From Anaerolineae bacterium (GTDB lineage Bacteria; Chloroflexota; Anaerolineae; 4572-78; NAK82): a stretch of DNA of 64,000 nucleotides. Under the pieces are notes generated by a model that did no database searches, was not told the origin of the DNA, and saw only the letters and a list, made by a program, of their open reading frames with translations. Of the stretch, positions 3,247-59,642 are shown one piece after another (positions within the stretch are counted from its first letter, which is position 1; each line of letters starts with the position of its first letter). The stretch is taken from the NCBI GenBank assembly GCA_034412795.1, contig DAOUMD010000016.1:178-64177 (forward strand). The letters are read 5' to 3'. Both the position numbers and the translations under genes were made by a program.

Positions 3247-3330
3247 CTGAGGCCAAAGACCCAGGTTATCCACGGCCGAGATGGCGGGACACGTGGTACT
3301 GTGAAGTGATGAGGAAAGGAGAAAATTGTC

Positions 3331-4134
3331 ATGGATAACGTTCTGGCCGGGCATACCAACAGTTATCACACTTATGGGTTGGACGAGGCGCTGGAGGGTA
3401 TCGCGCAAGCCGGTTTCAGGTACGTCGAACTCTCCGCTGTGCGTGGGTGGACTGAGCATGTCCCTTTGGAAGCTACCGATGCCCAGATAGCTGAGATCAA
3501 AGCCAAGATGAGCCAGCTTGGGCTTCAAGCATCCGCGTTGAGCGGGCATTCCGATCTGACCACGGCTGAGGGTGTGGTGGACGGCAAGAAAGCCGTCGAT
3601 CTGTGCACCAAGCTTGGCCTGTCCCTTATGGTCACCGCCATCGGCGGCCACTACAGCGAGGACGAAGACAAAGACTCCTTTATGGGCTACATCCACGACC
3701 TGGCCGACTATGCCGCCGGGCAGAGTGTTGCCCTCGCCCTTGAGGTGCACGGCGACATCATGGCTTCCGGTCAGCTTTCCATCCCACTCATCAAGGAAAT
3801 CAACCGGGACAATGTGAGGATCAACTACGATACCGCCAACTGTGTGTTCTACGGCGGCGTGGAGGCTGTCGATGATTTGAGGCCGGCCGTGCCCTATTTG
3901 GCTCACATTCACCTCAAAGATACAGGTGGCGGCCAGCGCGAGTGGAATTTCCCCGCCATCAGCGAGGGGCGGCTTGATTTTGACGCCATTCTTAAACTGC
4001 TGGATGAGGAGGGCTACACTGGCCCCTTCAGTGTTGAGATTGAGTTCCAGGGCGAGCCGTGGCCCCCGCTATCAGAAGTCAATCGCTCAATGAAGGTATC
4101 ATACGAACATCTCAAGAGTTTGGGGCTGTCGTAA
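3331..4134 (+). CDS. sugar phosphate isomerase/epimerase (xylose-isomerase-like TIM barrel)
   Basis: 267 aa, family-typical N-terminus (GFRYVELS...), RBS GGAAAGGAG upstream. Confidence 0.8.
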   Translation: MDNVLAGHTNSYHTYGLDEALEGIAQAGFRYVELSAVRGWTEHVPLEATDAQIAEIKAKMSQLGLQASALSGHSDLTTAEGVVDGKKAVDLCTKLGLSLMVTAIGGHYSEDEDKDSFMGYIHDLADYAAGQSVALALEVHGDIMASGQLSIPLIKEINRDNVRINYDTANCVFYGGVEAVDDLRPAVPYLAHIHLKDTGGGQREWNFPAISEGRLDFDAILKLLDEEGYTGPFSVEIEFQGEPWPPLSEVNRSMKVSYEHLKSLGLS

Positions 4135-4376: not shown

Positions 4377-5378
4377 ATGCTCCGAGCGGGAGTGCTTGGT
4401 GCAGGTTTTATGGGGGGCACCCATGCCCGGGCCTTTGCCGAGCTGCCCGATGTGCGAGTGCTGGGCGTTTCTTCGCGCTCGGCCGAGAAGGCGGCTGCTC
4501 TCGCCGGGGAAGTAGGCGCTGAACCATTCACCGATACTATGGCGCTGGCCACCCATCCCCAGGTTGATGTCGTCAGTGTAACTCTGCCCACCCATCTGCA
4601 CGAGGAATATACCGTCGCCGCCCTGAACTCTGGCAAACCAGTTCTTCTGGAAAAACCGATGGGCCTATCGGTGGAAGAATGCGAGGTTATGATAGCTGCT
4701 GCTGACCAGAGCGGTCAAATCCTCATGCTGGCTCACGTTCTGCGCTTCTGGCCGGAATACGTGGCTCTGGTTGACTTCGTGAAGAGCGGCGAGTTAGGTG
4801 AACCCCTTTCTGCTTCTGCCACTCGCCTCTCCGCCAGACCCACCTGGGGGGATTGGTTCACCAACCCGGACTGGACTGGCGGTGCCGTACACGATCTGCA
4901 TATTCACGACTTGGATACCCTCAACTGGCTCTTTGGCACACCTCGGTCGGTATACTCTCGCGGGCAACGAGGAGCTCCCGGCGGGTGGGATCAGGTACTG
5001 ACCCTGGTCGATTATGGCCAGGTGGGTTGCCTTGCTGAGGGCAGTGTGATGATGCCTGATGAATATCCCTTCACGATGACGCTGCGGGTTCTGTGCGAGA
5101 AAGGCTCGGTGGAATTCATCTTCCGTGCGGGTGGCACCGGAGTGGAGACGGGCAATACCTCTGGTATCAGCTTGATGATTTACGAATCAGGCGTGGAGCC
5201 TCGTCCCTTGTCCGCTCCCGGTGGTGATGCCTATAAGGCCCAGGTGGCCTATTTCGCGGACTGCGTACGTGAGAAACGCCCTCCCGAGCGAGGTACGCCC
5301 GAGCAGGGGCGATTGGCTGTCAAGACAGCTCTGGCTGCCCGCGAGGCGCTAGAGACGAATCAGGTCATCTATTTTTGA
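4377..5378 (+). CDS. Gfo/Idh/MocA family oxidoreductase
   Basis: Rossmann motif GVLGAGFMGGTHA and the EKP motif (LLEKPMG). Confidence 0.85.
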   Translation: MLRAGVLGAGFMGGTHARAFAELPDVRVLGVSSRSAEKAAALAGEVGAEPFTDTMALATHPQVDVVSVTLPTHLHEEYTVAALNSGKPVLLEKPMGLSVEECEVMIAAADQSGQILMLAHVLRFWPEYVALVDFVKSGELGEPLSASATRLSARPTWGDWFTNPDWTGGAVHDLHIHDLDTLNWLFGTPRSVYSRGQRGAPGGWDQVLTLVDYGQVGCLAEGSVMMPDEYPFTMTLRVLCEKGSVEFIFRAGGTGVETGNTSGISLMIYESGVEPRPLSAPGGDAYKAQVAYFADCVREKRPPERGTPEQGRLAVKTALAAREALETNQVIYF

Positions 5379-5435
5379 TCACCATCACAATTGCATCGAG
5401 ACAGAGCTGCCTGTTTGAGACAGGGGCTTAGCATC

Positions 5436-6471: not shown

Positions 6472-7896
6472 ATGATTGAAGCCTTGAAACTTGTCGAGCC
6501 AAGGTTCGTGCCGCCGCTGGATAAAGGATTTCGTCCCGCGGTATTGGCCAATCGTGAATTCCAAAGATCGCTGGGGGAAATGGGCGGAGGCGTTCCCTTG
6601 GTGCTCGGCCTGGAGCGGGCAGACGGGTCTGTGTCACGTTTTGAAACACAGGTTTTCCCCGACGATCACCCCCGGTCTGATGCTAACCTTATGTATGCCG
6701 AGCGACTGGTTAAATTTCTCCTCTGGCAGCGTGGTGGCTGGAAGGTTTACGTGGGTGGCCCCCAGCGCATTGGCGCCTATATCAGAGGGTGCTACTCCCC
6801 CGATGGCCCCCGCGCATTTGATTATCACTTTATGGGAGAGGACGTCTACGAAAGGACATTCACCATCCATCCCTGTACCCCTGCGGAAGTCCCCGCCCAA
6901 CGCGAGAGCGAACAAGCACTGGGGCGCCACTTAGATGGCTACCGTATTGGCTTTGATCTGGGGGCATCAGATGTCAAGGTCTCGGCGGTCGTGGATGGCG
7001 AGGCAATCTTCAGTAGAGAGGTCGTCTGGGAACCGCGCCAGCAGACTGACCCGGGGTACCACTACGATCATATTATGGCCCTCCTAAAGGAAGCTGCTGC
7101 AAAGATGCCGCAAGTAGATGCCATTGGCGGCAGCTCGGCGGGCGTCTATGTCAACAATCGCGTGATGATCGCCTCCCTGTTCCGTGGTGTACCAAAGGAC
7201 AGGTTCGACGAGGCCAAAAATATGTTTCTGCGCATCCGTGAAGAGCTGGGGGTGCCGCTGGAAATTGTGAACGATGGAGAGGTAACCGCCCTTGCCGGTT
7301 CCATGTCGTTGGAAGATAACGGTGTCCTGGGCATCGCGCTCGGTTCGAGCGAAGCAGGTGGCTATGTCACGGGCTCGGGCAACATCACCGGGTGGTTAAA
7401 TGAACTGGCCTTTGCTCCTATTGATTACAGCCCCACCGCTCCCATAGACGAGTGGTCTGGAGACAGAGGGTGTGGCGCTCGTTACTTTTCACAGCAATGT
7501 GTATTCCGACTTGCCCCAAAAGCTGAGATAGAGATCCCTGAGGATATCACCGATGCCGAGAAGCTCAAATTCGTTCAGGAGAGGCTCGAAGCCGGGCACG
7601 ATGGCGCTACAAGAATCTGGCAGAGCATAGGCTATTACATGGGGTATGCCATCGCCCACTACGCCGACTTCTATGACGATTTGAAACACGTTCTGATATT
7701 GGGACGTTGCACCTCCGGTAAGGGCGGGGTGCTCATTCTCGATGGTGCCAACCAGGTACTCGAGTCGGAATTCCCGGAGCTTGCCGACCGAACCAATATC
7801 CAACTGCCGGACGAAAAGAGCCGGCGTGTCGGTCAGTCTATCGCGGCTGCCAGTCTCCCTGCAATTGCCCCTGCTACGGATAGAGAGAAAGTGTGA
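6472..7896 (+). CDS. ROK/ASKHA-type sugar kinase-like protein with ~150-aa N-terminal extension
   Basis: GFDLGASDVKVS phosphate-1-like motif and an NDGEVTALAG segment typical of ROK/glucokinase folds. Confidence 0.6.
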   Translation: MIEALKLVEPRFVPPLDKGFRPAVLANREFQRSLGEMGGGVPLVLGLERADGSVSRFETQVFPDDHPRSDANLMYAERLVKFLLWQRGGWKVYVGGPQRIGAYIRGCYSPDGPRAFDYHFMGEDVYERTFTIHPCTPAEVPAQRESEQALGRHLDGYRIGFDLGASDVKVSAVVDGEAIFSREVVWEPRQQTDPGYHYDHIMALLKEAAAKMPQVDAIGGSSAGVYVNNRVMIASLFRGVPKDRFDEAKNMFLRIREELGVPLEIVNDGEVTALAGSMSLEDNGVLGIALGSSEAGGYVTGSGNITGWLNELAFAPIDYSPTAPIDEWSGDRGCGARYFSQQCVFRLAPKAEIEIPEDITDAEKLKFVQERLEAGHDGATRIWQSIGYYMGYAIAHYADFYDDLKHVLILGRCTSGKGGVLILDGANQVLESEFPELADRTNIQLPDEKSRRVGQSIAAASLPAIAPATDREKV

Positions 7897-52525: not shown

Positions 52526-53851
52526 CTACGCGGCCATAAAGACGTCGCCGCTGAAGTGGGCCACGATGTCATCATCCTTGTGTTTGACTACTGTGTCCAG
52601 ATCGCCACACACCTTGCGAAGCGCCTCCGCGTACATCTCCATCAGCTCCTGGCCATTGGGTGGATTGGTGCCGATGATGGCCGTGTAGTCTTCACACAGC
52701 GCGGTGGCGACTGGATAATCCTCCCCACGGTAGGTGACCTCCCTATCATACAGGGGGTTGTTCTTCCACGGGAAGCCCTTGCCGTGGCCGAGCTTGGTCT
52801 GGAAGAGGTCCTGGGTCGGCACCGGCATGATTTGCCACTGGCCGACGGCGACGCCCTCCATGTGCAATGCTTTCTCAAGAGCGATGCGGAATTCACGCGG
52901 CGACAGGTCGACGCCCGCCTTTTTCGGGTCGAAACGTACGATGTACATCCACCACACGTGGGTTCTGTCTGGAGGCACATAAGGGGTTGTGACCCATTCG
53001 TACTCACTCAATACATCGGTCAGCATGGCACAGTTCTTATGGCGGATGGTGTTGTTCTCGTCCAATCGCTGCAACTGGGCGCGGGCGAAGGCAGCCGGCA
53101 GCTCCTGGGTTCTGAACATATAACCCAGGATGGAGGCGTTGTAGACCCTGAGTTGCGTCTCGTCGTCAATTTCATCTCCGAACATACGCAGCATGTCCCC
53201 GCGCATCAAGTAGGTATCGTCGTCGGTGACGAAGAAACCGCCCTCACCCCCACACAAGTTCTTGGAACTGTTCAGGCTGAAGGCCCCGAAATCGCCAATG
53301 GAACCGACTTTCTTGCCCTTGTACTCGGCTCCGTGAGCCTGGCAGGCATCTTCAATGACGATCAGGTTGTGCTTCTTGGCGATGGCCATGATCTCGTCCA
53401 TATCGGCGGGTAGTCCGTGAAGATGGACGGGGATGATGGCCTTGGTCCTGTCGGTAATTTTTTCCTCGATCTTGGTGGCGTCGATGTTGAACGTCCTCTC
53501 GTCGATGTCGACGAAGATGGGGATGGCGTTAGCGTGCAGGATGCATGAGGCAGAGGCCAAAAAGGTGTAGGCCGGGGCGATGACTTCGTCGCCCAGGCCC
53601 ACCTGGGCGGCTGCCAACGACATGTGCAGGGCCGCCGTGCCGCTGTTGGTGGCCAGGCAGTGCTTTCTGCCAACGTATTCTGCCCACTCCTTTTGCAGGG
53701 CCACCGTTTCGGGTGCTCCGCCACCGCACACAGTCTTATTGTCGAAGACCCGCAGGACAGCTTCCCGATCCCGTTCGTCGATCGGAGGCCACGGTTTGAG
53801 TGCCCCCTCAGGAACGGTCCGTTCTCCACCATCGATGGCTAACTTCTTCAT
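52526..53851 (-). CDS. DegT/DnrJ/EryC1/StrS family PLP-dependent aminotransferase
   Basis: FSLNSSKNLCGGEGG (PLP-lysine context); RBS AAGGAGG. Confidence 0.85.
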   Translation of the reverse strand: MKKLAIDGGERTVPEGALKPWPPIDERDREAVLRVFDNKTVCGGGAPETVALQKEWAEYVGRKHCLATNSGTAALHMSLAAAQVGLGDEVIAPAYTFLASASCILHANAIPIFVDIDERTFNIDATKIEEKITDRTKAIIPVHLHGLPADMDEIMAIAKKHNLIVIEDACQAHGAEYKGKKVGSIGDFGAFSLNSSKNLCGGEGGFFVTDDDTYLMRGDMLRMFGDEIDDETQLRVYNASILGYMFRTQELPAAFARAQLQRLDENNTIRHKNCAMLTDVLSEYEWVTTPYVPPDRTHVWWMYIVRFDPKKAGVDLSPREFRIALEKALHMEGVAVGQWQIMPVPTQDLFQTKLGHGKGFPWKNNPLYDREVTYRGEDYPVATALCEDYTAIIGTNPPNGQELMEMYAEALRKVCGDLDTVVKHKDDDIVAHFSGDVFMAA

Positions 53852-54174: not shown

Positions 54175-54822
54175 CTACAGGATGGGGGATTTGTCAAGAA
54201 ACTCCGGGGATCGAGCTTGGAGTGCCTGAGCGAGCCGTTCAGCGCGCCCGACGAGATCGAGAATCTCATCGCGTTTGGCTTTCAAAAACGTAGCTAATTT
54301 TACTGCAACGGGGTCATCAAAAGCGTCATCCTCAACACGCTCCAGAAACGTCTTTACGATTTCGCGCCATTGTGGAGAATATGTCTCCTGCTAGATGCGT
54401 CTGATTAGGGCTGGAGGCACTACAGCCGAGTGAATGCTTTTGAGGGCCATGCCAAAATCGCCCCAGTGGCGATCCAACAAGTCAACTTCATAACCATTGT
54501 GGCCCTCAACAAAAGGATAAAGAATCACCTTGAAGGCGTCCAGGCTCGCCCAGAGTTGCCCGGTTTTGGTTGCCAGCGGGGCTATGATTTGCCCGATGCC
54601 CTGGTCGCCGAGAAATTTGGGTAACGCCACAGAAGTTTCGTCAAAAACGCCGCTTCTTAACTTCAGAAAATACGGCGTTTCATCGTCTGCGACGACGCGA
54701 TAGACGGCTGTATTCCGATCAGCTCCGAGAGGAAGAAAAGTGACCTGGACAACATTCAATCCATATTCATCTCGCAAACAAGCGATAATTTTTTCGTCTT
54801 GGAGATCAGGTTTTTCAAGCAT
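54175..54822 (-). pseudogene. aminoglycoside/antibiotic phosphotransferase (APH) family pseudogene
   Basis: APH-like N-lobe (VTFLPLGADRNTAVYRV...PYFLKL). An in-frame TAG sits at 54391-54393 and the same frame continues (QETYSPQWREIV...). Homology ends at ...ARSPEF, before the catalytic loop. Confidence 0.7.
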
Positions 54823-55247
54823 GGGTATGTGAGTTTTCCATCTTCATGAGAAACAATCTGTGCTATTTCCCGCTCCAGCTCGTCCAGAGACCGCGTAAAC
54901 CAGATGGTCAGACACAGGTGGGTCGCGCCGCGGCTCTACACATGGTTAGCCCGCCCCTCAACCACGCTTGCTTGGGGCGGTAATCCATGTTCATATACTT
55001 ATCACCTCTCTCCAGCTCGACCAACAGATGTCATCCCTTTCGCTTGATGTCGACTCAGTTTCGCATCACCTGGCACTTCAGGGGGGTACATCTTGGCCGC
55101 ATGTGAGTGGTACATTCACGGGCGAATATTGACAGCTTCCAAATAGGACGAAATCTCAGTCTGCATATTGTGCCTTCTACTTCAGGAGCGTTGAATCAAA
55201 CCGCATCACATGCCGAAGCCACCCCGTTCAGACGGCGCTTCGCGCTC

Positions 55248-55374
55248 TCTGAACGGTCGCGAGCTCAGCGGCCCGCCTTTCTACGCCCAACCATTATGGC
55301 CATTCTGCCTGGTGGACGCGCCAATCAGGTTGACCGTCCCGCTCACAGGGTCCGCTGCAGTGAGTTGGTTATGC
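55248..55374 (-). repeat. attC-like imperfect inverted repeat A (127 nt)
   Basis: Minus strand reads GCATAAC-spacer-CTGCAGCGGACCC...GGGCCGCTGAGC-spacer-GTTCAGA. Two extra bases occur only in the 5' arm. It is a paralogue of 56026-56146. Confidence 0.45.
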
Positions 55375-55995
55375 TGAAACGCTTTCGATCTTCTTGCCAT
55401 CCTGTGAGATCCTTAGAGAGAAAGTGACGGAAACCGGATCTCCGCTTGGTGACTTCCCTATCTCAACATCAACTATAGGTATCCGCAACCCTGATCGAGT
55501 CAGTTTTTCCCTTAGAGTGTCGCTAATCTTGCTATCTGGAATATGAGGAGCGATAGACGCAAAAGCCTTTAGGATTTGCTTTGCCAGTTCGATAAACATC
55601 CACTTCTTCCCTGCTTGTTCATACTGAACCCTCTCTATTGATAGGTGTGCTGCTTGTTTATTGGCCTTTGTAAGTGTTTGTTGGAGATCTGGAGAAATCG
55701 GAGGAAGATGATTATTGATAACGTCAGTGTCAACGTAATCTTCAAGGACAATATCTGTAGCAAAGTCCCTTCCCATCGATCGCGAATAGAGGAAATTGAT
55801 TAGATTTCGAGCGTGGAGTGCAAAGCTATTTAGTAGGCCGTTGTTTATTGCCCAAGGCAAATATCCCTCAGCCTTATATATGGTCAAGAAAGCGAGAATG
55901 CCTGCTGACCAGGTGAGCATATCGATCTCGTATTGAAGATGCTCATCCGCATAATGCAACAGGTCGCTATCTGAAAGCGAATTTGGCGGCTTCAT
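55369..55995 (-). CDS. hypothetical protein (orphan; helical N-part, beta-rich C-tail)
   Basis: 208 aa from the ATG preceded by GGAAGGAGG; AT-rich codon usage; the TAA stop lies inside the GCATAAC core of the downstream attC-like repeat. Confidence 0.6.
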   Translation of the reverse strand: MKPPNSLSDSDLLHYADEHLQYEIDMLTWSAGILAFLTIYKAEGYLPWAINNGLLNSFALHARNLINFLYSRSMGRDFATDIVLEDYVDTDVINNHLPPISPDLQQTLTKANKQAAHLSIERVQYEQAGKKWMFIELAKQILKAFASIAPHIPDSKISDTLREKLTRSGLRIPIVDVEIGKSPSGDPVSVTFSLRISQDGKKIESVSA

Positions 55996-56025
55996 TGCTA
56001 CCTCCTTCCTCAAGGCACTGTGTCG

Positions 56026-56146
56026 GCATAACGCCCAAGCTCAGCGGCCCGCAAGATGGGTAACAACTTCAAGCAAGTGACCCACGCATTGTGCCAATCA
56101 TTGTGAGAGCCCAGCCCTTGGGGTCCGCTGCAGCGATGGATTAGGG
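56026..56146 (-). repeat. attC-like imperfect inverted repeat B (121 nt)
   Basis: Minus strand reads CCCTAAT-spacer-GCTGCAGCGGACCC...GGGCCGCTGAGC-spacer-GTTATGC. It shares both arms and an internal GCCAATCA with repeat A. Confidence 0.45.
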
Positions 56147-56158
56147 CGTGACCTTACA

Positions 56159-57289
56159 CTAAAGCGAAATATGAACTACCATGTCACTAACTTGGTCATT
56201 AGGTTCAAAAGAAGCATCAACGTTAATACCTTCGAGAAAGAATCTGGCAAACTCATCTTTGTGGTTGTACTGTGTTCCTGGTTGGTTCAAAATGCGATTT
56301 GCGCTCGCTGTGAATAAATCAGCAACCTGTAAGAAGATATTACTGTGAGAATCAGCGCATCGTACTTCATCAATGTGAAGCTCACCGTCAAAGCGTGATA
56401 CAGAAGCCCGCTTCAGACGGTCATCCAAATCGGCAGTCAACAAACTGTCATATCCTTCTTCCTCTGAGTCCTTCCAGACCTGCAATAGTCGTGGTAGTGG
56501 AGCTCTACCCGTTTCGTCTTCGGTTTCTACACCTCGGATCAACAGATGGTAAAACAGTTGCTGCAAAGCAACTTGCTTATTCTGAATACCAGCCGTTGGC
56601 ACAGTCACTAGTTTGAAACTGACAGTAGGTGCTTCCTCCAAAAAAAGCGTTATCATTTCCTTATAAGTTGTTAAGTCACCCCTGTTCATATGTGAGAAGT
56701 GAAACTCTTTGGTGAAACCAACTTCCTCCATGAAATCGAGAATCTTCTTGTTTAGTGTAAAGATGGGATATCCTCCTCCAAGGAACCAAACACTCCCAAC
56801 AATGAGTTGACTAGCATTCTTTCCACTCTCATCCATATAAACAACGAGTGTGGGATAACCAACAGGTTTGTCTTCAAGGGCTTTTTCCTTTTCCTCTTCT
56901 GAGAGGGTACCACGTTTCTCGCGTATTTCGGAGCTGGCAATGAAAAGTTTGTATGTGTTCTGGATTCGTGCTCGCTCACGGGCTATAGATGTCAGACGAG
57001 TCAAACGATAGAGCTCATCAGGTTTAATAGAGTAGCCATTGTATATATGAGACTCAAAGGTTTCCCAAAGCTTAAGTTGCAGGGCAATGTCCGAATTCCT
57101 TGTTTCAGGATGGTGATTGAGAATCCAGGCGACTTTGTCCCGCAAAGTATTGACAGTGGCGGAAGATATGTGATTAAGAAGTCGCTGGCGTTCTTCCTCG
57201 TGCTGTGCTTCTTTTTGCTCTTCCTCAGACAAAGCTTCCTGAGATTCCTCAGATTGAGAATCTAGGAAATCAAATATGGATTGTTGCAT
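56159..57289 (-). CDS. DUF3800 domain protein with ~140-aa N-terminal extension
   Basis: VVYMDESGK and FLQVADLF motifs (the DES / Q-x-AD hallmarks I recall for DUF3800); acidic low-complexity N-terminus; low GC. Confidence 0.7.
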   Translation of the reverse strand: MQQSIFDFLDSQSEESQEALSEEEQKEAQHEEERQRLLNHISSATVNTLRDKVAWILNHHPETRNSDIALQLKLWETFESHIYNGYSIKPDELYRLTRLTSIARERARIQNTYKLFIASSEIREKRGTLSEEEKEKALEDKPVGYPTLVVYMDESGKNASQLIVGSVWFLGGGYPIFTLNKKILDFMEEVGFTKEFHFSHMNRGDLTTYKEMITLFLEEAPTVSFKLVTVPTAGIQNKQVALQQLFYHLLIRGVETEDETGRAPLPRLLQVWKDSEEEGYDSLLTADLDDRLKRASVSRFDGELHIDEVRCADSHSNIFLQVADLFTASANRILNQPGTQYNHKDEFARFFLEGINVDASFEPNDQVSDMVVHISL

Positions 57290-57312
57290 TCCTGGTCCCT
57301 CTTGATTGTGCG

Positions 57313-57382
57313 GCCTAACGTCAGGCGCTTCCCAAAGATATGTCTGACGATTTTAACAATTACCTTGCTCTCTATTTTAGGA
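57313..57382 (-). repeat. weak attC-like site C with canonical GTTAGGC core
   Basis: Minus strand reads TCCTAAA (contains the TAA stop of 57377-57880)...CGTCAG...CTGACGTTAGGC. The hairpin is short and asymmetric. Confidence 0.3.
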
Positions 57383-57880
57383 TGACTGAAGCTTTGCCAA
57401 TTCTGTGGCTCCCAGCGTCTTCCCCAAGTTTCGCAGGTTTGAGGATAACCTTACAAGAGGCGCAGCTGCTGCTTGACTGAATGGTCGTAGGAGACTTGCT
57501 AGGAGTTCCAATATCCAGACAATAATGGCTGCCAACGCCAGTATAGTCTTTCCCCGTACGTAGATACGTAGGCGGATGAGTGAAAAGAGGAACCGTCCAT
57601 AGAATTTAGCAGGGAGAATTAGCCAAACGAAACTTTCCGTGATCGCAGCAAGTATGAGTAGGCCAGACATGACAAGTAAGCAAATTATAAGCGCTAGCGG
57701 TTGTGGCAAATCCATAAGTAGAAATACGATGTACAACATGGTTCCCAGGAAGATGGTTATCAGCAGGTTTAGACCAACCTGAACATTTCTTACAATAACA
57801 TCGACAATCCAACTGGCCAGGTTGCCTCCAGAGTTCAATGTCCACATAAACAATTTGTCGGGCATTTTCATAGGGCTCAT
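57377..57880 (-). CDS. hypothetical membrane protein (3-4 TM)
   Basis: 167 aa with hydrophobic helices (LLITIFLGTMLYIVFLL, LALIICLLVMSGLLILAAI, ILALAAIIVWILELLASLL); start overlaps the upstream stop (ATGA). Confidence 0.6.
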   Translation of the reverse strand: MSPMKMPDKLFMWTLNSGGNLASWIVDVIVRNVQVGLNLLITIFLGTMLYIVFLLMDLPQPLALIICLLVMSGLLILAAITESFVWLILPAKFYGRFLFSLIRLRIYVRGKTILALAAIIVWILELLASLLRPFSQAAAAPLVRLSSNLRNLGKTLGATELAKLQSS

Positions 57881-58194
57881 GGGTTGATTTCCTCTTCATG
57901 AACCTCGAAGAACAGAAGCCGTACAATATGAATACAGTAGTAAATGAGAATAGCCAGCGCAGAAAGTATTTGAATACCTTCGATAATAGTTGCTACAAGA
58001 GGAATCCTTTCGATTTCTTCGTGGAATAGAATAACTGCTTGCTGTATGAGCCAATGATCAAGTCTGAGGAAGATCCAAAATACGACCCCTGCTTCGAAGA
58101 TAAGGGAAGCAGTGCGGACTATATTCCTTGCGCGTTTCTGGAGTACAGTTCCAATGTAAGATCTAAGAGTCGTTTGAGATTGACCTCGTTTCAT
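57877..58194 (-). CDS. hypothetical small membrane protein (2 TM)
   Basis: 105 aa, two hydrophobic segments, translationally coupled to 57377-57880. Confidence 0.5.
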   Translation of the reverse strand: MKRGQSQTTLRSYIGTVLQKRARNIVRTASLIFEAGVVFWIFLRLDHWLIQQAVILFHEEIERIPLVATIIEGIQILSALAILIYYCIHIVRLLFFEVHEEEINP

Positions 58195-58238
58195 TGTTTT
58201 TAGAATCCTGGTTTAATCTAGGGCATACAGCGACAGTG

Positions 58239-58287
58239 GCCTAACTACTGATTCTACGACAATTTTGTCGCAGAATCCCCAGTATGT
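58239..58287 (-). repeat. attC/attI-like site D: 13-bp hairpin followed by GTTAGGC
   Basis: Minus strand reads GATTCTGCGACAA-AA-TTGTCGTAGAATC-AGTA-GTTAGGC, 45 nt upstream of the first membrane ORF. Confidence 0.3.
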
Positions 58288-58465
58288 GACAAACCCTGGT
58301 GTCGCTTATTCTACCAAATAATATATCATACTTTTTCGACCGTTTCAACACTTTTTCAGACTTTTTGCGACGCAGCTCCCTGATTTGAGGCTAACTGTAA
58401 CGCTCCCGTCGCATGGCCGCCAGCCTGGGACGGGCGCTCGTCATTGCAGAAAGAGGCGGGGCGTT

Positions 58466-58598: not shown

Positions 58599-59642
58599 AT
58601 GCCTGAAATGACCTCATTCGAGCGCTGCATAACCGTTTTGACGGGCGGCATCCCCGACCGGGTACCGGTCTGCCTGGAGAATTTCCAGCACGCCGCCGCC
58701 GTGGCTGGCTACACCCTGCGCGAATACTGCCTGGACGGCGAGAAGATGGCCGCCGCGCAAATCGCCGCCTGGCAGAAGTTCGGCCACGACATGATTGACA
58801 TGGAAAACGGGGTGGCGACGCTGGCGGGGGCGGTCGGGTGCGAAGTGCGCTATACTGATGACGCCCCGCCCTGGATCACCCGCCCCGTGCTAGAACGCAT
58901 CGAGGATATTGATCAGCTCAAACCTATTGATCCCTATCAAGATGGTACGCTGCCGGAGGTGATCAAGGCCACGCGCATCCTGGCCAGGGAATTGGGGAAG
59001 CACGTGTGTCTGCTGGTCGAAGCCGATCAAGGCCCATTTGACCTGGCTTGCCAGATCATGGACCTCCAGGAATTGCTGATCACCCTGCTCGATCCTGATA
59101 AGGAAGAGTGGGTTCACAAGTTATTGGCATACGCCTCTGAACAGATGCTGAGCTATGCCCGGGCGCTGATCGAAGCCGGAGCTCACCTGACGATGATGGG
59201 GGAATCGACCGGTGGGCCGGATGTCTGTTCGCCGGCCATTTACCGTCGCTTCGCTTTTCCTTACGAGCAGCGCCTGGTCGAAACCTTGCGCGCCGAGGGC
59301 AAGGAGATCGGCATGCACATTTGTGGGAATGTGACACCCATCATTGAGTCGATGGTGGCTAGCGGCGCTATCTTTTTGCAGGTTGACTACAAAATTGACC
59401 ATGCCGCCTGCAAGCGAGCTGCGCGGGGCAAGACCACGTTGATCGGCACGCTGGATCCCAGCGGCGTCATGGCGCGGGGCACAGTGGAAGACGTAATCCA
59501 GGCCGCCCGTTACGACATCCAATACTTGTCGGAAGGGGGCGGGTTTATCCTCAGCCCGGGCTGTACCTTGCCTTATACCACGCCGGATGAAAATGTCGCT
59601 GCGTTGGTTGAGACAGCTAAGCGGTACGGCCAATATCATTAA
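58599..59642 (+). CDS. URO-D/MtaA-like methyltransferase family protein
   Basis: N-terminal FERCITVLTGGIPDRVP, MHICGN and GGGFILSPGC motifs. Start at the ATG after AGGAGAG; the track ORF begins upstream at 58413. Confidence 0.75.
   Translation: MPEMTSFERCITVLTGGIPDRVPVCLENFQHAAAVAGYTLREYCLDGEKMAAAQIAAWQKFGHDMIDMENGVATLAGAVGCEVRYTDDAPPWITRPVLERIEDIDQLKPIDPYQDGTLPEVIKATRILARELGKHVCLLVEADQGPFDLACQIMDLQELLITLLDPDKEEWVHKLLAYASEQMLSYARALIEAGAHLTMMGESTGGPDVCSPAIYRRFAFPYEQRLVETLRAEGKEIGMHICGNVTPIIESMVASGAIFLQVDYKIDHAACKRAARGKTTLIGTLDPSGVMARGTVEDVIQAARYDIQYLSEGGGFILSPGCTLPYTTPDENVAALVETAKRYGQYH

Follow-up and report, generated by a model that had tools for sequence, protein, structure and literature searches.

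The locus described here lies in a 64,000-nucleotide stretch of a contig from an Anaerolineae bacterium (DAOUMD010000016.1), the whole of which we call the window, and consists of an inserted, gene-bearing island with two putative attC sites of the kind that accompany integron gene cassettes. An original prediction, made from the letters alone, had proposed a cassette array without an integrase at positions 55248-58287. The island separates two divergent genes, a DegT-family aminotransferase (52526-53851, minus strand) and a URO-D/MtaA-family methyltransferase (58599-59642, plus strand), and its GC content is low (44-50% between 54 and 58 kb, against ~56% elsewhere). In the relatives L043 and L044 these two genes lie 445 nt apart, compared with ~4.7 kb in the window. 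Host homology ends at 54210 in the comparison with L043 and resumes at 58462 in the comparison with L136, whose URO-D protein is 94% identical. These limits place the island at 54211-58461 (4251 bp), so that the range first proposed was too small, and the window carries an insertion relative to its relatives. Where relatives of the URO-D-family protein are named, they derive from metagenome-assembled genomes (MAGs) of Anaerolineae, Caldilineaceae, and other Chloroflexota, and the genes on the head side of the island (URO-D, MttB, SGL, and peptidase) are conserved in relatives. L136 (positions 1-467) and L042 (positions 1-1270) share unrelated DNA at the same spot, and the L042 stretch includes an open reading frame (ORF) of 140 aa; because different DNA sits there in these relatives, the spacer upstream of URO-D is variable and may be a local insertion hotspot.

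All units of the island are written on the minus strand. From the URO-D side they are a pair of overlapping membrane-like ORFs, a DUF3800 cassette, a cassette with a 208-aa ORF, a non-coding stretch, and the remnant of a phosphotransferase cassette. The two attC sites, each recognized by a covariance-model match, follow the middle cassettes: site A (55248-55374, 127 nt) ends the 208-aa ORF cassette and site B (56026-56146, 121 nt) ends the DUF3800 cassette. Both lengths fall inside the roughly 57-141 nt over which known attC sites range. Over their full lengths the two share 76% identity, with no difference in the arms AGCTCAGCGGCCCGC and GGGTCCGCTGCAG (plus strand), and GCCAATCA precedes the second arm by exactly 20 nt in each, so that direct comparison bears out the coordinates, shared arms, and spacing first described. 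A pattern search of the whole 64 kb found no further copies of the arms. On the minus strand, site A is made up of R'' GCATAAC (55374-55368), L'' (55360-55348), L' (55274-55262), and R' GTTCAGA (55254-55248), and site B of R'' CCCTAAT (56146-56140), L'' (56133-56121), L' (56050-56038), and R' GTTATGC (56032-56026). This is the inverse core-site arrangement of attC (R'' RYYYAAC, R' G/TTRRRY, the slash marking the cut), with the AAC or GTT triplet present in three of the four boxes. Each site stands directly 3' of an ORF on its own strand. The TAA stop of the 208-aa ORF sits inside the R'' box GCATAAC, as had been proposed for both ORFs, but the DUF3800 stop TAG (56159-56161) lies 12 nt upstream of the R'' box of site B (56140-56146). 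The regularity of the array had been overstated in another respect, since an inverted repeat after each ORF unit is true of two units only; no attC was detected behind the membrane ORFs or around the phosphotransferase remnant.

When the plus strand was folded as DNA, each site formed a long stem with two single-base bulges, both in the 3' arm, which is the R'' side. The unpaired bases had been predicted in that arm only, and their confinement to the R''/L'' arm is the pattern of extrahelical bases by which the bottom strand of an attC site is known. The bulged bases in the L'' arm are T and C in the window, compared with T and G in aadA sites.

As no attC family exists in Rfam, and as running Rfam against both the region and the entire window returned noise only, we built covariance models for the purpose. 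One genome per GTDB species was scanned for CTGCAGCGGACC followed after 55-85 nt by GGCCGCTGAGC, which yielded 39 loci from Acidobacteriota, Myxococcota, Gemmatimonadota, Chloroflexota, KSB1, Binatia, Rubricoccaceae, Nitrosomonas, Noviherbaspirillum, and one MAG labelled archaeal. In the majority of matches the first arm is preceded by GCCTAAC and 5 nt and the second is followed by 5-8 nt and GTTAGGC, that is, a canonical R''/R' pair in flanks that lay outside the query pattern. Many of the foreign copies stand in same-strand arrays, with up to ~17 sites in 8 kb, and are not dispersed as mobile palindromes would be. When 49 distinct foreign sites were aligned, pairing in the R''/R' helix reached 91%, and four of its pairs showed changes in both partners, as in GCCGAAC with GTTCGGC. 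Some of these copies merit mention in their own right. The 23-base stem is identical in MAGs of more than ten bacterial phyla (for example L020/L040, L022, L024, L026, and L029) and occurs in the archaeal-labelled MAG (L026, 'H02S_Hermod_124'), where the site resembles that of a Chloroflexia contig (L029) over its whole length. The L026 occurrence could reflect cross-domain cassette flow or a binning error, and the identical stem could mark a single cassette pool across phyla, perhaps across domains. Contig L029 carries two attC sites (3314-3441 and 7541-7668) that are identical including their flanks and lie 4.2 kb apart, as if a block of cassettes had recently been duplicated.

Model R1 was built from the 49 foreign sites and model R2 from 150 sites that R1 found in the arrays, the window's own sequences being left out of both. 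In the 64 kb, site B scored 43.0 and 42.3 bits (E of 6e-9 and 4e-7 with R1 and R2) and site A 36.8 and 28.2 bits (E of 2e-7 and 4e-4). Such E values lie well outside chance. Both models matched these two repeats on the predicted minus strand and nothing else, the next best score being 11 bits; the contrast between strands was 43 bits on the minus strand versus 9.8 on the plus. As a positive control, R2 was run on 26 kb of DNA from the class 1 integrons of plasmids pFBAOT6 and R46, where it recovered aadA2 (44 bits), aadA1 (30), orfD (25.6), and both oxa2 sites (~19.5), all on the cassette strand and with no other match at E < 1. With this one model the class 1 sites score 19-44 bits and the window sites 28-43 bits; since the ranges overlap, the window sites score like experimentally known attC sites. 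In the model alignment the window bulges fall at the same stem positions as those of aadA1 and aadA2. Judged from their sequences, sites A and B are genuine integron attC sites.

The organization of the cassettes between the sites points in the same direction. An integrated cassette begins with the TTRRRY that earlier closed its circle at G/TT, and bases 2-7 of the upstream R' are consequently complementary to the cassette's own R''. This junction rule is exact in 22 of the 28 informative neighboring pairs of the foreign arrays. It is also exact for the one window pair B to A (R' GTTATGC of site B against R'' GCATAAC of site A, that is, TTATGC and GCATAA), as the original prediction had noted, and it agrees at five of six positions for the DUF3800 cassette. 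By the same rule, the last four bases of the R' box of site A, which do not follow RRRY, belong to the next unit. The rule and an alignment with contig L049 delimit the 208-aa ORF cassette as a complete cassette of 778 bp (cassette 2; 55254-56031, minus strand), which starts with TTATGC and comprises a 36-nt leader (ribosome-binding site GGAGG), the ORF at 55369-55995, and site A up to the G of G/TT. L049 is a 5961-bp metagenomic contig with seven attC matches on one strand, and its homologue of the 208-aa ORF, at 70% aa identity, is preceded by an attC whose last bases are GTTATGC and followed by its own attC, whose first bases are GCATAAC. The counterpart of site A there is the attC at L049:1726-1860, with R'' GCATAAC in both. 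DNA homology between the window and L049 spans CGTTATGCCGA to ...CCGTT and diverges beyond, stopping at the G/TT points. The 208-aa ORF and site A are thus one mobile unit that sits in two different arrays, and the cassette reasoning of the earlier prediction is thereby borne out by the window pair, the foreign pairs, and the L049 comparison.

The 208-aa protein belongs to a family of ~50 uncharacterised proteins with invariant residues H61, R63, K110, K113, Q114, H117, and R122. Its AlphaFold model, a confident one (pLDDT 87.5), is a helical bundle with a small C-terminal sheet, for which searches of the PDB returned no structural neighbor at E <= 0.001 and no sequence match. A likeness of the model to HEPN toxins was weak (match probability 0.2-0.33), and we do not count it as evidence.

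The DUF3800 cassette (cassette 1; 56032-57318, 1287 bp, minus strand), likewise complete and identified by its Pfam domain and by a homologue in L054 and L055, consists of a TTAGGC start within the core GTTAGGC (57319-57313), a 29-nt leader, an ORF of 376 aa (56159-57289; Pfam DUF3800, E of 1e-7), and site B. In L054 and L055 the homologue, at 68% identity, forms a single-gene cassette of ~1290 bp between two attC matches, with an R' of GTTGGAC-CGC 19 nt before the ATG, compared with GTTAGGC-CGC 23 nt before the ATG in the window. This equivalent junction position supports the GTTAGGC at 57313-57319 as the start of the cassette, as had been proposed. A candidate attC at 57310-57329, where GCCTAAC abuts GTCAGGC, scored 8-9 bits (E of ~4 over the window) and is unsupported. 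The DUF3800 protein is also hit by PDC-M04A, a candidate defence model of PADLOC (33 bits, E of 8e-9), and by an unannotated PHROG, and the cassette could possibly have an anti-phage function.

These comparisons bear on whether the two repeats merely resemble attC and are instead terminators or palindromes akin to repetitive extragenic palindromic sequences (REP) or miniature inverted-repeat transposable elements (MITE). Their form, as imperfect palindromes 3' of ORFs with unremarkable folding energy, would fit such elements. There are only two copies in 64 kb, however, adjacent and both on the ORF strand, and neither is followed by the T-run of a terminator. Elsewhere the same repeats form same-strand arrays, one of them beside an integron integrase; the junction rule holds among them, the model that finds them also finds classical attC sites, and an ORF travels with its repeat as a block between arrays. 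We reject both the REP/MITE and the terminator readings on the two same-strand copies, the missing T-run, the junction rule, and the model control, and leave them almost no probability.

The island ends on its left side in a damaged cassette. The remnant of an APH-family (APH(9)-like) phosphotransferase cassette occupies 54211-54879 (minus strand) and was identified through its homologues and through an NCBIfam APH(9)-Ia match with an E of 3e-27, but far below the family cut-off. Its ORF starts at 54822 behind a leader, and in translation an in-frame C-to-T nonsense codon TAG appears at 54391-54393. The 5' two-thirds are left, and the 3' third is gone together with its attC, so that this cassette has become a pseudogene. 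An intact homologue of 339 aa stands between two attC matches in L064 (1945-2964) and adjoins one in L056, L066, and L076. The window DNA aligns closely with L064 and L056, with most columns identical, up to 54211, where the break abuts the -35 box of the host DegT promoter. Because the alignment ends there beside a host promoter, the left edge of the island was made by an illegitimate deletion and not by the integrase. The break falls in a 12-13-nt stretch of likeness between cassette and host, TCyCCGrAATTT (window 54199-54215; L043:4670-4690; L064 ~2600), which suggests a microhomology-mediated deletion. The APH-like kinase is widespread in metagenomes: 136 loci were found, the 80 that were kept are 59-90% identical to the window fragment, and in at least four contigs the gene adjoins attC sites. 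It is a candidate environmental aminoglycoside-kinase cassette.

The edges of the island also matter for the idea that an integrase inserted the cassettes directly at a non-attI site (a secondary site, or attG) and that they do not descend from a resident integron that decayed. Widespread insertion at genomic attG sites has reportedly been found in recent work. The window would suit such an event in that the spacer is promoter-rich and intergenic and varies among relatives, L042 and L136 carrying other DNA there. Secondary-site insertion is, moreover, listed among the origins of integrase-less arrays (PMC4889954). Neither edge of the island, however, is a clean G/TT junction with the host, the left one being a deletion inside a gene and the right one not placed to the base, and we regard this origin as unlikely.

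Between site A and the APH-like cassette lies a non-coding stretch of ~370 nt (54880-55247, minus strand) with a hairpin and a possible relic. The R' box GTTCAGA of site A is followed after 14 nt by its complement TCTGAAC (55224-55256), as part of a 9-bp perfect inverted repeat (55224-55232/55248-55256) that extends to 15 nt at 87% and has a hairpin z of -2.1. The repeat exists as first described, but its reading as the stump of a lost cassette is unproven. A possible attC relic at 54873-54951 comprises an R''-like GGCTAAC (54951-54945), a 9-bp stem, and a decayed R' GCTGGAG (54879-54873), and MAFFT places it opposite the upstream attC of L064; the covariance model gave it 2.2 bits only, and its fold z was above 0. 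A 28-codon ORF (54908-54994, minus strand) with a good ribosome-binding site, GGAGAGAGG, 12 nt before its ATG runs into this candidate relic, and the 10 nt CGAGCTGGAG form a direct repeat (54873-54882 and 55010-55019).

At the other end of the island are two overlapping hydrophobic, membrane-like ORFs (57377-58194, minus strand), recognized in translation, of 105 aa (57877-58194) and 167 aa (57377-57880). Searches of Pfam, NCBIfam, PADLOC, and PHROG returned nothing for them, the metagenome scan found no relatives, and neither the models nor folding revealed an attC in 57290-57376 behind them; the unit is possibly an older cassette with a decayed attC. A second GTTAGGC heptamer (58239-58245, minus strand), a candidate junction, lies 44 nt upstream of the first membrane ORF. 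It is present as the original prediction stated, but no tested evidence gives it a role: models and folding found no attC or attI structure upstream of it, and the window contains four GTTAGGC heptamers against 5.3 expected, two of the four on the cassette strand of the island. Farther toward the host, the membrane unit has a promoter-like site of its own (58320-58348, minus strand), TTGAAA-17-TATATT extended by TG, which points along the array and agrees with the consensus at 10 of 12 positions; it is known by this agreement only. Between it and the membrane ORFs lies a near-perfect 26-nt palindrome, ATTCTGCGACAAAATTGTCGTAGAAT (58251-58276, minus strand; z = -2.75), which looks like an operator or a leader hairpin. 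A GTTAGCC heptamer after a hairpin with a 9-bp stem, also in the island head (58389-58434, minus strand), is a candidate short-attC relic or a terminator-like hairpin, with a z of about -0.5 to -0.9, which is not significant, and no covariance match. As attC sites, the segments 57313-57383 (with the 58 nt that follow the membrane ORFs), 58389-58445, and 54873-54951 find no support from models or folding and are possible relics only.

The features of the head could be taken for the stump of a complete integron, in which 58246-58461 and the GTTAGGC ending at 58245 would be the leftover Pc promoter and attI after deletion of intI. A strong promoter-like site directed into the array, a GTTRRRY heptamer 44 nt before the first ORF, and the certainty that the other end of the island was shaped by deletion are all compatible with this. 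A tblastn search of the window, however, found no intI fragment; host homology resumes ~215 nt past the heptamer and so leaves no room for an integrase remnant; attI is too poorly conserved to be recognized and has no general model; and the heptamer count of the window is at chance level overall. We consider a stump very unlikely. That the array was inserted at a non-attI site and is now a fixed, integrase-independent operon transcribed from its own head promoter (58348-58320) appears quite unlikely as well; if true, it would be a natural Chloroflexota example of cassettes domesticated outside an integron.

Whether the array has an integrase at hand was examined with phmmer, hmmsearch, and tblastn using four tyrosine recombinases, one of them an IntI1 sequence verified to match annotated copies at 100% identity. 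The 64 kb yielded neither an integrase gene nor a fragment of one at E < 0.06, in agreement with the lack of a tyrosine recombinase that had been noted earlier, and the window thus has no adjacent divergent intI such as a complete integron would show. A cluster of attC sites lacking an integron-integrase is called a CALIN (Cury et al. 2016, IntegronFinder, PMC4889954). The definition asks for a cluster of two or more attC sites on one strand, within 4 kb, without an integron integrase nearby; sites A and B lie 776 nt apart on the minus strand, and the nearby region, taken as the 64-kb window, is free of integrase. With neither intI nor a fragment of it in the window, CALIN-like is the right label. 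The same type of attC does occur with an integrase elsewhere. In a Myxococcota MAG (L013), a protein that scores 472 bits with the integron-integrase model TIGR02249 (cut-off 265) is encoded divergently beside two attC sites of the window's type. In a Nitrosomonas MAG (L032), an integrase-like ORF (4495-5403, minus strand; 178 bits versus the cut-off of 265, its strongest stretch N-terminal only) lies ~3.6 kb from a same-strand attC and may be a degenerate or atypical integrase.

Such associations raise the question of whether an integrase encoded by a complete integron at another place in the same genome still excises and reuses the cassettes in trans, which would make the island a satellite of that integron. 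About half of all CALINs occur in genomes that encode IntI, and rearrangement or secondary-site insertion can create them (PMC4889954). Site A, with its AAC and GTT cores intact, would still suit such reuse, and Chloroflexota MAGs (L025, L029, L037, and L038) carry large arrays of the same attC type. Against this, there is no intI within 54 kb on one side of the island and ~5.5 kb on the other, and a further ~3 kb of genes in L001 contain no integrase-family domain. The pseudogene cassette, the lost C in the R'' box of site B, and the loss of attC in the flanking units point to long disuse. We therefore hold a satellite to be rather unlikely, and we return to the reading of the island as an array that has lost its integrase.

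Folding of the attC bottom strand, recognition of its bulges, cleavage at G/TT, and excision or insertion of cassettes are established integron biology. Applied to this island, they imply that the plus strand, when single-stranded, would fold with R' pairing R'' and L' pairing L'', and that the two bases bulging from the L'' arm would mark the strand bound by the integrase. The enzyme would cut at the top-strand G/TT of R', so that recombination between two attC sites would release a circular cassette and recombination between attC and attI would insert one. The APH-like cassette was killed by the nonsense mutation and shortened by the illegitimate deletion from which the left edge of the island also results. 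The cassettes are expected to be immobile, there being no integrase in the window, unless one is supplied in trans. Site A keeps its AAC and GTT cores. The R'' box of site B ends in AAT in place of the almost invariant AAC; because the last R'' position is C in 49 of 49 foreign sites of the alignment and T here, site B is probably impaired. A pseudogene, a mutated core, and missing sites together indicate an old, decaying array, from which we infer past integrase activity, present inactivity, and the order of events just given.

Several observations weigh against this account. The R' box GTTCAGA of site A and the R'' box CCCTAAT of site B deviate from the RYYYAAC/GTTRRRY consensus. The bottom strands do not fold at lower energy than shuffled sequence (z = +1.4 and -0.4), for which reason we dropped energy as a criterion and rest the structure on comparison and not on thermodynamics. 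The models were seeded from the window's own stem and favor this attC subtype; being so seeded, they may miss others. Lastly, an attC can be detected in no more than two of the island's four or five units. The attC models, the foreign cassettes, and the integrase search nevertheless support a CALIN-like array without an integrase, and we conclude that the island, lying between two divergent core genes on an Anaerolineae-like Chloroflexota chromosome, is very probably the fossil of an integron cassette array.

The array differs from the CALINs already described in nothing essential. It shares with them two same-strand attC sites without intI nearby, a small size, and cassettes mostly of unknown function that are unrelated to clinical resistance cassettes; what sets it apart is that its decay is directly legible in the truncated pseudogene, the mutated R'', and the attC-less flanking units, and that its host is an uncultured Anaerolineae-like Chloroflexota bacterium known from a MAG. 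A small size is usual, as 83% of CALINs have fewer than six sites, and integrons were already known in Chloroflexi (PMC4889954). Like the class 1 attC sites of aadA1, aadA2, blaOXA-2, and orfD, the window sites have the layout R''-spacer-L''...L'-spacer-R' with two bulges at matching positions. At 121-127 nt, compared with ~60-75 nt, they are about twice as long, owing to a larger central loop, the first bulged base of the bottom strand is C in place of G, and the R'' box of site B ends in AAT. Sedentary chromosomal arrays (the VCR type of Vibrio; L020/L040, L022, L024, and L027) resemble the window in the stem CTGCAGCGGACC/GGCCGCTGAGC, cassette size, organization, and junction rule; they can comprise as many as ~17 sites in 8 kb, with an integrase beside at least one of them (L013), whereas the window has two sites and no integrase. 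With attG insertion the window shares the presence of cassettes outside an integron platform, in an ordinary intergenic region, and it differs in having no preserved clean junctions with the host.

The locus thus belongs to an already well-known kind of element and opens no new question about it. Its value lies in being a clean worked example of how a cassette array decays after separation from its integrase, including the loss of a kinase cassette from a resistance family. For the annotation of this genome the gain is that four genes otherwise listed as hypothetical can be labelled as integron cassettes of foreign origin. The DUF3800, 208-aa, and APH-like cassettes circulate between arrays of different environmental metagenomes.

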